From a virus (Duplodnaviria > Heunggongvirae > Uroviricota > Caudoviricetes): a DNA stretch of 15,087 nt. The position numbers and the translations under genes were made by a program. Within the stretch, counting starts at the first letter, position 1. The number at the start of each line of letters is the position of its first letter. The stretch lies in the IMG/VR virus record IMGVR_UViG_2698536392_000024, positions 1 to 15,087 of that record. One strand, 5' to 3'. Shown in pieces: positions 7,959 through 9,244 of this stretch. The notes beneath the pieces are model-generated. The model saw only the letters and a program-made list of their open reading frames with translations, made no database searches and had not been told where the DNA came from.

Positions 7959-8183
7959 TCAGTCCCTGATCCCTTTCAGAAATTCTATCATTGCATCTAT
8001 CTGTTCAGGATTTACCGCCAGCATTTCACCGGATAGAGCACATCTCACAAAACCATGCTGATCCTTTTCAATCAGTGCGCCCGTCTCCAGGAATGCGCGG
8101 TAATCATTGATGCTCATCGTCTCCATGTTGTCAGCATGGTATTTATCACGCTGTTTTAATATCTCATCAAATTTCATCGGCAT
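7959..8183 (-). CDS. Hypothetical protein (74 aa)
   Basis: ATG at 8183 with AGAGGA RBS; MPMKFDEILKQRDKYHADNMETMSINDYRAFLETGALIEKDQHGFVRCALSGEMLAVNPEQIDAMIEFLKGIRD; followed by its own terminator. Confidence 0.55.
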   Translation of the reverse strand: MPMKFDEILKQRDKYHADNMETMSINDYRAFLETGALIEKDQHGFVRCALSGEMLAVNPEQIDAMIEFLKGIRD

Positions 8184-8278
8184 TGTTTTTTCCTCTGTTG
8201 TGTCTGTTTGTTTCAGATAGTAACGATGCCAGACCGTGACGAAAACCCGGTAATGCGCCATACCGTTTCAACTGGTGC

Positions 8279-8301
8279 AAAAAAAGCCGGATTTCTCCGG
8301 C
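8279..8301 (-). terminator. Rho-independent terminator after the PerC-like gene
   Basis: Minus-strand RNA GCCGGA-GAAA-UCCGGC followed by U7. Confidence 0.65.
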
Positions 8302-8308
8302 TGTGTGA

Positions 8309-8581
8309 TTAGCTGTCCTGGTAATTGCGCCATATTTCATCACCAGCACCATCTATCCCCATTTCGGCATAAGTGCGATCGACTGCCTTTTTCAGGTCTC
8401 CGTAATTATCCGGTGGCTCCGGTGGCCTCTGTGCCTTCCTGCAACATTCCAGCCGTCGCATCGTGATGTGATGCCGTTCCTTGTCTGTCTCCACCAGCTG
8501 CATGACTTCACCCCATCGCGCCGCCGCCCTCCGGTAAAAGCCTTTCGCCTCGAGTTCTTCCGCTATGCGGTCATGTACCAT
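8309..8581 (-). CDS. PerC-like small transcriptional regulator (tentative)
   Basis: ATG at 8581 preceded by GAGGGGGGG RBS directly after the ssb stop; MVHDRIAEELEAKGFYRRAAARWGEVMQ... resembles the PerC/Pch YRRAxxRW signature as recalled; the track's longer N-terminus would overlap ssb. Confidence 0.5.
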   Translation of the reverse strand: MVHDRIAEELEAKGFYRRAAARWGEVMQLVETDKERHHITMRRLECCRKAQRPPEPPDNYGDLKKAVDRTYAEMGIDGAGDEIWRNYQDS

Positions 8582-8591
8582 CGTCCCCCCC

Positions 8592-9002
8592 TCAGAACGG
8601 AATACCGTCACCGTAAGGGTCATCGCCTCCCGCTGGTGGCTGATTACCCTGTGTGCCTGTGGTTTTGCGTCTGTTCCCGCTAGGACGTGCCGCGCGGGCA
8701 CTGATTACGCTGTCTGCAATAACCTGATAACCCTGCCGTGTTTCCCCGTTCTGTCCGGTCCACTGGCTGATCTGCATGTTACCCGCCACGCTCAGGAGTT
8801 CACCCTTGCGGTGCCTTGCCAGTGCTTCGGCCTGTCTGCCAAATGCCAGGACGGATAACCACATCGTCGCCGTTCCGTCATCTGCCTGGCTGCACGGAAG
8901 GGGGACCGCCATACGCGCCAGCGTCATCGGTGTGCCCTTGCTGGTCTGTTTTACCTGCGGGTCGTCCACCAGCCGCCCGTAAGCGGCTATCTGTGCTGTC
9001 AT
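8592..9002 (-). CDS. ssb: Single-stranded DNA-binding protein
   Basis: OB-fold SSB pattern (GRLVDDPQVKQT..., WLSVLAFGRQAEALARHRKGELLSVAGNMQISQWTGQNGETRQGYQVIADSV) and acidic C-terminal tail DDPYGDGIPF resembling the SSB DDDIPF tip. Confidence 0.85.
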   Translation of the reverse strand: MTAQIAAYGRLVDDPQVKQTSKGTPMTLARMAVPLPCSQADDGTATMWLSVLAFGRQAEALARHRKGELLSVAGNMQISQWTGQNGETRQGYQVIADSVISARAARPSGNRRKTTGTQGNQPPAGGDDPYGDGIPF

Positions 9003-9244
9003 GATTCCACCTCTCCGGTTTTAACGTTGATGGTTGTTACCTGTTCCGCTTCGGCAATCTCCCGTTCCGTCAGCGTGGCAAAGTTTGCCGCCGCCGTGGT
9101 CATGAATGCGCTTATTAGTTCGGGATGTGCTTTCGCATATCCTTCCCCGGCGTTGCGGTCGATGATTTTTATCGACACCCTTAACCAGTGTTCCGTCAAA
9201 TCAAGGGCGTGCGATTGTGATTTTTTTGTGTGCTTCGCTGTCAT
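8999..9244 (-). CDS. Hypothetical protein (81 aa), first gene of the ssb operon
   Basis: ATG at 9244; stop overlaps the ssb start (ATGA); MTAKHTKKSQSHALDLTEHWLRVSIKIIDRNAGEGYAKAHPELISAFMTTAAANFATLTEREIAEAEQVTTINVKTGEVES. Confidence 0.6.
   Translation of the reverse strand: MTAKHTKKSQSHALDLTEHWLRVSIKIIDRNAGEGYAKAHPELISAFMTTAAANFATLTEREIAEAEQVTTINVKTGEVES

Follow-up and report, generated by a model that had tools for sequence, protein, structure and literature searches.

Four small genes lie between the replication origin and the packaging operon of a phage-like element, and this locus raises the question of what such a block is for and whether the regulator that it carries acts on the host or on the element itself. 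The block was analysed within a stretch of 15,087 nucleotides of DNA, referred to here as the window. [quoted passage not shown] The features recognised in and around it, with the evidence for each, are as follows.

9250 to 9531, no strand assigned: AT-rich, iteron-type replication origin (repeat families D1, D2, D4, I1-I4, I11 and I12, and sequence).
9254 to 9272, minus strand: inferred -10 region and transcription start of the 81aa-ssb-perC operon (extrapolated from the O157:H7 orthologue).
8999 to 9244, minus strand: 81-aa protein, orthologue of ECs1586, phrog_1231, first gene past the origin (ORF, PHROG, homologues).
8592 to 9002, minus strand: divergent ssDNA-binding protein of 136 aa, orthologue of ECs1587 (PF00436, TIGR00621).
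8309 to 8581, minus strand: PerC-family regulator of 90 aa, orthologue of PchE (ECs1588, group 3 Pch) (PF06069, identity, synteny).
8281 to 8307, minus strand: intrinsic terminator T1, hairpin 8285-8302 followed by seven Ts, in one copy of a 27-nt repeat (terminator scan, folding).
7959 to 8183, minus strand: 74-aa acidic protein, orthologue of ECs1589, phrog_1957, with a GAGGA ribosome-binding site (ORF, PHROG, homologues).
7927 to 7953, minus strand: intrinsic terminator T2, hairpin 7931-7948 followed by five Ts, in the second copy of the 27-nt repeat, at the junction to the packaging module (terminator scan, folding).

The block is the accessory region at the centre of a capsid-forming phage-inducible chromosomal island (cf-PICI), an E. 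coli phage satellite of the EcCIEDL933/Sp7/CP-933C type. E. coli 2012C-4227 matches the window at 100% identity, with the island located between cspD and clpS, and the annotation of that identical record gives the island order as int, an alpA-like HTH gene, icd, DUF4222, primase and 81aa-ssb-perC-74aa, followed by genes for capsid, protease, portal, head closure, connector, HNH, TerS and TerL. Read from this annotation and the ORF list, the window has the gene content by which cf-PICIs are recognised (bioRxiv 10.1101/2025.02.11.637232). The four-gene block matches ECs1586-ECs1587(ssb)-pchE(ECs1588)-ECs1589 of Sp7/CP-933C/OI-51 in E. coli O157:H7, and this synteny, together with the cf-PICI gene content, bears out the satellite context that had been supposed. 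For Sp7/CP-933C/OI-51, genes for an ssDNA-binding protein and PchE had been described before (PMC3378721); this element is the prototype cf-PICI EcCIEDL933 (bioRxiv 10.1101/2022.09.08.507074).

Window and Sp7 share the four genes in equal order, one of them named pchE there, both terminators and the downstream capsid operon, with protein identities of 60/83 for the 81-aa protein, 119/136 for SSB, 80/90 for PerC, 73/74 for the 74-aa protein and 379/385 for the capsid. They differ in the site of integration (roxA/phoQ for Sp7, cspD/clpS for the window island), in integrase, primase, origin iterons and the first ~20 codons of the 81-aa gene, and in that the window copy has lost reading frames: compared with intact relatives, 4 nt are missing from the primase gene and 1 nt from terL, and PGAP flags both as frameshifted. 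The window therefore holds a decayed member of the cf-PICIs and not an intact, helper-inducible and transferable one, and the four small genes are intact in this copy. Since the block has already been described, the stretch is largely ordinary. Published mutagenesis is confined to the packaging module, and transfer of EcCIEDL933 was lowered by mutating "hypothetical gene 1792" (bioRxiv 10.1101/2022.09.08.507074). Taken as a whole, the account given here, with this identity for the accessory block, two transcription units and separate roles for their parts, is likely to be correct.

The identity of the regulator is clear. The gene starts 10 nt past the ssb stop, behind TGAGGGGGGGGACG-ATG, in agreement with the strong ribosome-binding site that had been noted for it, and the suspected PerC assignment was confirmed by a full-length match to PF06069 (E 1.6e-43; 147.3 bits against a cut-off of 22.6) in which residues 1-89 fall on profile positions 1-89 of 90. 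PGAP likewise names the product a PerC family transcriptional regulator. Identity to Sakai PchE over 80 of 90 residues and identical synteny (ECs1586, ssb, ECs1589, capsid) make it the orthologue of PchE. Plasmid-borne PerC-family matches are less than 60% identical, mostly ~33-49%, except for three near-identical copies, and prophage-borne relatives reach at most 42%. The ANR family also matched, weakly and below its threshold (19.6 bits; cut-off 32), a resemblance noted for EcCIMP1_025 by its authors as well (PMC11773190).

Like PerC of EPEC and PchA/B/C of EHEC (group 1 Pch, activators of LEE1/ler), the window protein is small, mobile-element-borne and a member of PF06069. Group 1 Pch relieves silencing by H-NS/StpA/Hha/YdgT (PMC4764244). 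Unlike group 1, the group 3 protein PchE does not activate LEE1 and has little or no effect on the LEE (PMC6265319; PMC11773190, citing Iyoda 2004 and Porter 2005); in O157:H7 pchE acts as a repressor of csgD/curli and adhesion and increases the expression of flagella (PMC6265319, PMC7369912). These phenotypes come largely from plasmid overexpression; deletion of pchE shifted csgD and flhDC ~2-fold, with csgD falling as it does on overexpression (PMC7369912), and made Congo-red staining at 37 °C only slightly stronger (PMC6265319). By analogy, the window protein would act on host regulons by lowering csgD/curli and raising flhDC/flagella, not by activating the LEE, and it most likely does so by remodelling H-NS-type silencing complexes or by binding other regulators like ANR proteins.

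The earlier proposal that a satellite-borne PerC homologue affects host genes is thus supported by the PchE literature (PMC6265319, PMC7369912), yet it was already published. EcCIMP1_025, the PerC-family cargo of the E. coli PICI EcCIMP1, is ~40% identical to the EcCIEDL933 protein, alters virulence-gene expression and represses the LEE, an effect not reported for PchE, and satellite PerC regulators are treated in other work too as modulators of virulence genes (PMC11773190). That a PerC-type regulator carried by a satellite can rewire host adhesion, motility and virulence is established for pchE and EcCIMP1, and the window adds one more, decayed, copy at a different chromosomal site.

The same protein could instead mainly serve the island, as an anti-silencer or activator of the AT-rich origin region or of the packaging operon, with secondary effects on the host. 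PerC-family genes are common in Gram-negative PICIs, many of them in non-pathogens (PMC11773190, PMC13612085), and 714 of 5,426 E. coli genomes carry this one; the gene lies just upstream of a packaging operon whose own leader is conserved and structured, and H-NS, whose silencing group 1 Pch relieves (PMC4764244), typically targets DNA acquired by horizontal transfer. However, islands in Klebsiella, Serratia, Proteus and Gilliamella and other cf-PICIs share the packaging operon and the leader without perC, indicating that perC is not a general late activator. In addition, pchE expression falls under SOS induction (PMC6265319, PMC7369912), and perC has been retained in the window despite the broken primase and terL genes, which fits a host-directed role better. 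We consider a mainly island-serving PerC unlikely and retain the host-directed reading.

The regulator is predicted to be the last gene of a transcription unit that begins at the edge of the origin. The 81-aa gene and ssb are joined by an ATGA in which the TGA of the first and the ATG of the second overlap, as the proposed translational coupling of the two genes had it; perC follows after its 10-nt gap, and T1 lies behind it. In the orthologous element, 5' RACE and RNA-seq gave a polycistronic ECs1586-ECs1587-pchE RNA, and a promoter fusion in O157:H7 fell ~3-fold with SMX-TM (PMC7369912, sections 2.7 and 4.4; PMC6265319). By 5' RACE in O157:H7 PA20, this mRNA starts at a G lying 10 nt ahead of ECs1586 (PMC7369912, section 4.4). 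A candidate start G occurs at 9254, also 10 nt before the ATG of the 81-aa gene, with a -10-like TTTACT at 9262-9267 or TTTAAT at 9267-9272 and a poor -35, in upstream sequence that is not homologous to Sp7; a strict sigma-70 promoter scan of the window returned no site for the operon. Unit 1 would thus consist of 81aa-ssb-perC, from a promoter extrapolated from the orthologue to a stop at T1, and unit 2 of the 74-aa gene with a stop at T2, after which the packaging operon from capsid to terL would follow behind its own leader.

A phage moron is an autonomous promoter-gene-terminator unit that lies between essential phage genes and is expressed from the prophage. Unit 1 would resemble morons in a predicted promoter of its own and a strong predicted terminator, in its place between replication and packaging modules, in being expressed when integrated, as seen for the O157:H7 orthologue (PMC7369912), and in being present in some related elements and absent from others. 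It differs from them in holding a replication-type ssb together with a host-directed regulator and in a terminator sequence that cassettes have in common. By analogy with the O157:H7 orthologue only, it would be a moron-like unit, on when the element is integrated and uninduced and lowered by SOS-inducing drugs.

The other two genes of unit 1 point to replication. Approximately nine GGTGAACAG iterons in both orientations were found at 9290-9530, with the D5-type primase gene on one side and the 81-aa gene on the other, placing an origin upstream of the 81-aa gene as the earlier note had it; Sakai Sp7 has different iterons (TAACCCGCA) in the corresponding position. Against known RNA families, 7600-9600 matched nothing but miRNA models of plants and animals, at chance level and on palindromes of the origin. 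The SSB matches PF00436 (E 1.2e-15; 57.9 bits, cut-off 26) and TIGR00621 (57 bits, cut-off 53.95), and 24 solved SSB structures match it, the best in the PDB being Thermotoga SSB (E 1.9e-11). Over the OB fold its identity to E. coli SSB is 27%, and in this alignment the equivalents of W54, F60 and W88 are aligned and that of W40 is not conserved. The acidic C-terminal tip of E. coli SSB, ending in IPF, binds partner proteins. The C-terminus of the satellite SSB reads ...GGDDPYGDGIPF and ends ...DDPYGDGIPF, so that the IPF tip is present. With its OB fold and this tip, the protein should therefore, as judged from sequence, coat ssDNA and recruit host SSB partners, and it would support replication begun by the D5-type primase-helicase at the adjacent iterons. 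It shares the OB fold, the conserved aromatic positions and the ...IPF tip with bacterial, plasmid and phage SSBs of PF00436, and is unlike them in being short (136 aa), divergent and encoded behind a coupled 81-aa gene without counterpart in deposited phage genomes.

The 81-aa protein has a variable N-terminus and a near-invariant stretch of 45 C-terminal residues, and its homologues form 163 clusters confined to E. coli, Shigella, E. albertii and Citrobacter. A Xenorhabdus island carries a homologue without ssb, indicating that the 81-aa protein and SSB are not obligate partners. Compared with five other islands, the 81-aa, ssb and perC genes gave dN/dS values of 0.04-0.33, and all three are under purifying selection. 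The AF2 model is a helical hairpin of low confidence (pLDDT 62.5), too poor for a fold search, and a profile search against the PDB gave no match below E 0.4. Through the ATGA overlap the protein would be made in stoichiometric amounts with SSB, and it may serve replication or SSB as a helical partner. Its N-terminus was also considered as an adaptor co-varying with the replication protein or origin type. This idea was rejected because two related loci, L009 and L025, have primases that are 98% identical and equal origins with 81-aa N-termini only 50% identical; only the first few codons of the gene travel with the origin.

The 74-aa gene lies between T1 and T2, at the place that had been given for it, and no promoter is evident between T1 and its start. 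Its homologues come from more than 10 genera, are 31-50% identical and have 26 near-invariant columns; in Klebsiella, Serratia, Proteus, Gilliamella and others they lie between primase and capsid operon. This family, found in PICIs across Enterobacterales, is new in this analysis. Its AF2 model is confident (pLDDT 93.5), and a structural-neighbour search with it found none. The remote-homology and structure work that had been proposed for both small proteins therefore gave one confident model without a known fold and one poor model with an empty PDB profile search.

That the 81-aa and 74-aa frames are chance ORFs in spacer DNA is effectively refuted. Neither has a Pfam or NCBIfam family, the 74-aa ORF has no detectable promoter and published expression data for ECs1589 are absent, but both match PHROG families end to end (E 5e-50 and 9e-42, respectively), the orthologue of the 81-aa gene is on the mapped polycistronic mRNA (PMC7369912) and the 74-aa model is confident. 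Given the dN/dS of the 81-aa gene and the cross-genus homologues of the 74-aa gene, both ORFs are real genes. A phage origin for the two was rejected, as tblastn against 50,697 phage records returned no match for either.

Another explanation would make the block defence or counter-defence cargo, in which SSB with its 81-aa partner, or the 74-aa protein, hits competing phages or host immunity. On either side of the cf-PICI packaging operon the sequence is variable and presumed to carry immune systems (bioRxiv 10.1101/2025.02.11.637232), the Klebsiella and Serratia islands hold an unrelated opposite-strand accessory gene at the position of the block, the operon is constitutive in the integrated state (PMC7369912), and the two small proteins have neither phage homologues nor a known fold. 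However, none of the four proteins matched any PADLOC defence family, even at E 0.1, and assignment to a defence system was rejected; the 81aa-ssb pair always comes directly after origin and primase, where a replication accessory would be placed; the SSB has retained both the OB-fold aromatics and the IPF tip seen in functional SSBs; and EcCIEDL933 showed no interference against helper phages (bioRxiv 10.1101/2022.09.08.507074). This explanation is very unlikely, and a replication-accessory role for the 81aa-ssb pair is preferred.

The 74-aa family is always found between the replication module and the morphogenesis module, and the protein may be a small acidic protein-binding factor acting at the step from replication to morphogenesis. 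In Enterobacterales PICIs the family might then be an unrecognised regulatory or helper-interaction factor that couples the early, replicative phase with packaging-operon expression, perhaps via the conserved three-hairpin leader upstream of the capsid gene, with 81aa-SSB as a satellite-specific replication accessory kept on during integration; this combined proposal is unlikely. The 74-aa gene is not essential for the element, as it is absent from apparently intact cf-PICIs (L025). The conserved structured leader beside the block, at 7663-7930 of the window, gives a concrete handle on how the packaging operon of cf-PICIs is switched on.

The two terminators proved to be more than ends of units. 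T1 and T2 are each predicted as a GC-rich hairpin followed immediately by a U run, the make-up of an intrinsic terminator, with a 7-bp stem AGCCGGA/UCCGGCU (five GC pairs), a 4-nt loop and a folding energy of -12.6 kcal/mol; both were found by the scan, with the one GCCGGA-N4-UCCGGC stem that had been reported for them. The window contains AGCCGGA-N4-TCCGGCT two times, where 200 shuffles gave an expectation of 0.00, and both hairpins lie within a 27-nt direct repeat (D3) whose copies are identical at 25 of 27 positions. T1 is conserved in Sakai Sp7 and L026, and the T2 hairpin closes the accessory block in six of six E. coli PICI variants examined, whatever gene precedes or follows. Homology breakpoints at 7927 and 7953 of the window coincide with the repeat edges, the repeat bounds a 354-bp indel carrying the 74-aa gene, and L025 has a single hybrid terminator at the point of this 354-bp deletion. 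The claim of near-identical terminators closing each unit thus stood as to their presence, and was refined in that they are shared module-junction sequences, beyond two similar stops. That the repeated terminator is a module junction is new in this analysis. T1 and T2 would insulate the units from the packaging operon, and since the terminator sequence is equal at every module boundary, they probably also serve as joints for homologous recombination by which cassettes are shuffled or deleted. One terminator sequence acting as a common joint for module exchange would help to explain the mosaicism of PICIs.

The distribution of the block in 5,426 complete E. coli genomes was consistent with such exchange. 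Some part of it is present in 1,729 genomes, approximately a third, and the 74-aa gene in 539; the capsid gene of this island occurs in 361, and the two are contiguous in 214. One variant has 81aa-ssb only (L008), another has 81aa-ssb-perC without capsid genes (L009), L025 has 81aa-ssb-perC beside the capsid gene without the 74-aa gene, and in L026 the complete block is combined with a RepA helicase and another capsid/decoration/TerS module. The gene order of the earlier note, with all genes on the minus strand, stands; the four genes are not one evolutionary unit. The 81aa-ssb pair, perC and the 74-aa gene are separately exchangeable cassettes. New in this analysis is that the 81aa-ssb pair is shared more widely than the rest, with pchE as an optional element. 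A link of the 74-aa gene only to HK97-type capsid modules in E. coli was rejected, because only 214 of the 539 genomes with the gene have it contiguous with this capsid gene and L026 differs. Within this widespread block, the 81-aa and 74-aa proteins have never been studied, and the 74-aa family, without known fold, extends over PICIs from Gilliamella to Proteus. A PGAP call of a "trigger factor" pseudogene at 8227-8352, which overlaps the 3' end of perC and T1 and is named a hypothetical protein in other genomes, was treated as an annotation artefact.

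The four genes at 7959-9244 and their two terminators lie on the minus strand, which carries every gene of the window, and are arranged as follows:

8999-9244, minus strand: 81-aa ORF, its TGA overlapping the ATG of ssb
8592-9002, minus strand: ssb (PF00436, E = 1.2e-15)
8581-8309, minus strand: PerC-like ORF, preceded by a G-rich Shine-Dalgarno sequence and starting 10 nt past the ssb stop (PF06069, full length, E = 1.6e-43)
8285-8302, minus strand: terminator T1, hairpin plus T7, after the PerC-like ORF
8183-7959, minus strand: 74-aa ORF with a GAGGA ribosome-binding site
7931-7948, minus strand: terminator T2, hairpin plus T5, after the 74-aa ORF

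This confirmed an earlier note made from the sequence, which had described an 81-aa gene coupled to ssb, a PerC-like gene with a strong ribosome-binding site, and a separate 74-aa gene set between two terminators of the same stem; the proposed PerC family search returned the expected match. Its interpretation, that a satellite-borne PerC copy could affect host genes, is supported, but has been published already for pchE and EcCIMP1_025. T1 and T2 share the stem AGCCGGA/UCCGGCU (folding energy -12.6 kcal/mol each) and both lie within a 27-nt repeat, 25/27 identical, the hairpin pattern occurring twice against 0.00 expected in shuffles. Pfam and NCBIfam searches gave no family for the 81-aa or 74-aa protein, which are matched end to end by the function-unknown PHROG families phrog_1231 (5e-50) and phrog_1957 (9e-42), respectively, and none of the four proteins matched the PADLOC defence models. 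Values of dN/dS between 0.04 and 0.33 for all three operon genes (81-aa, ssb and perC) indicate purifying selection. A partial 'trigger factor' pseudogene in RefSeq (8227-8352, minus strand), which overlaps the 3′ end of perC and T1, is most likely an annotation artefact; the same ORF is called 'hypothetical protein' in other genomes.

The block sits in an element with the following layout:

13849-15087, minus strand: integrase, followed by a short HTH gene of the alpA type
next, minus strand: icd-like fragments, DUF4222 gene and D5-type primase-helicase
9290-9530, between primase-helicase and four-gene block: AT-rich origin region with about nine GGTGAACAG iterons
after the four-gene block, minus strand: complete HK97-type head and packaging operon (capsid, protease, portal, head closure, connector, HNH, TerS, TerL)

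By content and size, this is a capsid-forming phage-inducible chromosomal island (cf-PICI) as defined in bioRxiv 10.1101/2022.09.08.507074 and 10.1101/2025.02.11.637232. E. coli 2012C-4227 is 100% identical to the window, and there the island lies between cspD and clpS. Two deletions set this copy apart from intact relatives, one of 4 nt in the primase at about 11195 and one of 1 nt in terL at about 2330, both genes being marked as frameshifted by PGAP; with these deletions, the island is probably immobile, incapable of replication or packaging. The four small genes are undamaged in the same copy, and intact cargo in a decayed island fits a benefit of the cargo to the host, although recent decay could equally explain it. 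Two Rfam matches above gathering scores, a C4 antisense RNA (12204-12291, minus strand, 72.6 bits) and an isrK Hfq-binding RNA (12313-12388, minus strand, 69 bits), adjoin the icd-like fragments, and 12204-12388 is identified by these matches as a P4-type RNA immunity region.

A close counterpart is found in the prophage-like element Sp7 of E. coli O157:H7 Sakai, where ECs1586, ECs1587 (ssb), pchE (ECs1588) and ECs1589 are accompanied, as in the window, by both terminators and followed by the same capsid operon. Against the window proteins, the four Sp7 products have identities of 60/83, 119/136, 80/90 and 73/74, respectively, and the capsid protein one of 379/385. Sp7, CP-933C, O-island 51 and EcCIEDL933 are one element, described by Flockhart et al. 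as P4-like, with a P4 alpha-like replication gene, AlpA and a putative ssDNA-binding protein alongside the PerC-like PchE and phage structural genes (PMC3378721), and made the prototype cf-PICI by Alqurainy et al. (bioRxiv 10.1101/2022.09.08.507074). This match of both block and element identifies the PerC-like gene as the pchE orthologue of a sister island with another integrase and attachment site. Nucleotide homology begins within the 81-aa gene, at about 9184 of the window, whereas upstream of this point Sp7 differs, having TAACCCGCA iterons at its origin and another primase. The DUF4222 protein of the window (99 aa, 11342-11641, minus strand) occupies the position of ECs1581 (RgdR), a type III secretion regulator in O157:H7 (PMC3378721), with just 31/99 residues identical. 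As part of a known satellite family, the block is well annotated and has been characterised in part, and the remaining interest lies in the two uncharacterised proteins, above all the 74-aa family, in the terminator as a recombination joint, and in a structured packaging leader.

Published work on pchE bears on both expression and function. In PA20 (O157:H7), RNA-seq read ends and 5′ RACE showed a polycistronic RNA that has its start at a G lying 10 nt before ECs1586 (PMC7369912, sections 2.7 and 4.4) and spans ECs1586, ECs1587 and pchE (PMC7369912), and a lacZ fusion with 1,067 nt upstream of pchE was on in uninduced cells and ~3-fold down with SMX-TM (PMC7369912). In the window, the G at 9254 lies 10 nt before the 81-aa ATG, just downstream of -10-like hexamers (TTTACT 9262-9267, TTTAAT 9267-9272) with a poor -35 region; a strict promoter scan of 7600-9600 returned no promoter. 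Because the promoter region is not homologous to that of Sp7, an operon start at G 9254 is something we infer for the window. The interval from T1 to the 74-aa gene has no promoter-like site, and the simplest guess is that read-through of T1 feeds this gene. PchE is the group 3 Pch, with little effect on LEE, unlike pchA, pchB and pchC (PMC6265319, PMC7369912); expressed from a plasmid, it strongly repressed csgD, csgA, curli, biofilm and HEp-2 adhesion and raised flhDC, fliC and motility (PMC6265319, PMC7369912). Effects of its deletion were small, with slightly stronger Congo-red staining at 37 °C (PMC6265319) and ~2-fold lower csgD and flhDC (PMC7369912). Activation by group 1 Pch proteins is relief of H-NS/StpA/Hha/YdgT silencing (PMC4764244). 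EcCIMP1_025, the PerC-like gene of another E. coli PICI, represses LEE1 (PMC11773190); its authors call members of the PerC family frequent in PICIs of Gram-negative bacteria and point to a resemblance to ANR regulators (PMC11773190), and the window protein matched the ANR family weakly (19.6 bits, under the cut-off of 32). A 2026 survey lists perC as PICI cargo (PMC13612085).

Among 5,426 complete E. coli genomes, 1,729 carry some part of 7900-9560 and 65 carry at least 80% of it, the commonest shared part being the 3′ two-thirds of the 81-aa gene with the 5′ part of ssb. The perC gene was found in 714 of these genomes, the 74-aa gene in 539 and the window-type capsid gene in 361, in 214 cases contiguous with the 74-aa gene. 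Four variants show how the parts separate:

L008: attachment site and primase of the window; 81aa-ssb, then a protease/capsid-fusion module; lacks perC and the 74-aa gene
L009: small PICI with 81aa-ssb-perC; lacks capsid genes
L025: cf-PICI, apparently intact, in which the capsid gene comes straight after 81aa-ssb-perC; lacks the 74-aa gene
L026: O157:H7 strain, Sp7 site; RepA-family helicase and all four genes of the block, followed by another capsid/decoration/TerS module

These variants indicate that the block is not one unit; as read from its distribution, it is three cassettes, 81aa-ssb, perC and the 74-aa gene, a modularity that is new in this analysis. The terminators appear to be the joints. 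L025 lacks exactly the 354 bp that hold the 74-aa gene and one repeat copy, and its single terminator has the capsid-side flank and loop of T2 and the perC-side flank of T1. In other genomes, homology breaks at window positions 7927 and 7953, which bound the 27-nt repeat, and the AAAAAGCCGGATTGCTCCGGCT hairpin closes the accessory block in 6/6 E. coli variants examined, whether preceded by ssb, perC or the 74-aa gene and whatever comes after. That T1 and T2 are nearly identical is best explained by a shared boundary sequence, also functioning as a predicted terminator, at which cassettes would be joined, duplicated and deleted by homologous recombination; this reading, too, is new here. Of 13 loci from other genera, 7 have a GC-rich hairpin with an unrelated sequence after the 74-aa homologue.

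Since it always comes directly after the origin, the 81aa-ssb pair is taken to be accessory to the replication module and to be transcribed in the integrated element too. The SSB is divergent, at 27% identity to E. coli SSB and with a Thermotoga SSB as best PDB match, and it retains the equivalents of W54, F60 and W88 and a C-terminus of ...DGIPF. The 81-aa protein has a narrow family, its 163 clusters coming from E. coli, Shigella, E. albertii and Citrobacter; the C-terminal 45 residues are near-invariant, the N-terminus falls into two allelic classes, and the predicted model is a low-confidence helical hairpin. The N-terminal classes did not track primase or origin type. Searches of 50,697 phage records by tblastn found no match to the 81-aa or 74-aa protein. 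The sole 81-aa case met beyond the Escherichia/Citrobacter group is on a Xenorhabdus khoisanae contig (L023, 412-837; 48% over 56 residues), directly upstream of a 74-aa homologue with neither ssb nor perC between, in an island without ssb.

The 74-aa protein has relatives above 90% identity in E. coli only, and exhaustive HMMER and profile searches added ~144 clusters sharing 31-50% identity, spread over Klebsiella, Serratia, Raoultella, Citrobacter, Enterobacter, Pectobacterium, Erwinia, Kosakonia and others, every one annotated hypothetical. In their alignment, 26 columns are invariant or at least 90% conserved, and the consensus includes W.DHH.F.R.T.S.EI.ATN.EQ.D..I..L...R. Species-representative genomes gave 15 loci, and every locus with enough flank has the same one-strand layout, with the homologue ~250-300 nt downstream of a primase and a capsid-protease-portal-HNH-terS-terL operon 0.26-1.7 kb beyond it (Gilliamella, Phytobacter, Pectobacterium, Kluyvera, Serratia, Enterobacter, Leclercia, Proteus and Xenorhabdus). 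Neither ssb nor perC is present in any of these other-genus islands. From this position, the gene may act where replication gives way to morphogenesis; judging from L025, it is dispensable in some cf-PICIs. In Klebsiella and Serratia (L003-L006), unrelated opposite-strand genes (257 aa and 75 aa, respectively; no Pfam match) separate the 74-aa homologue from the capsid gene; this slot before the packaging operon is a variable region where others expect immune systems.

The 270-nt leader from T2 to the capsid ATG (7663-7930, minus strand) is conserved across cf-PICIs of more than 10 genera, and contains:

7904-7919, minus strand: TTTGTAAATTATTTGT box
7857-7862 (TTTACC) and 7835-7840 (TATTCT), minus strand: promoter-like TTTAC-N16/17-TAT(A/T)(T/C)(C/T)
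7806-7829, minus strand: hairpin 1, loop GACG
7753-7804, minus strand: hairpin 2, a long stem, also with compensatory changes
7663-7699, minus strand: hairpin 3 plus T7, over the capsid ribosome-binding site

Covariation among 14 sequences backs the GACG-loop stem-loop, with 91% of cells paired, compared to 32-58% for slid partners, 6/9 pairs changed on both sides and a score reached by 0/500 shuffles. Hairpins 2 and 3 have another sequence in E. coli, with equivalent structures in the same places. Rfam gave no match for the leader, and only three records of the phage collection matched it: a 16.5-kb 'induced prophage' resembling a cf-PICI, a 106-kb Klebsiella phage record and a 3.8-kb fragment. 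We regard the leader as a candidate cis-regulatory RNA for the packaging operon. A single copy of the origin iteron core GGTGAACA sits at 7779-7787, in the loop of the long inverted repeat that precedes the capsid gene, and may reflect chance or replication-protein binding linked to the packaging leader.
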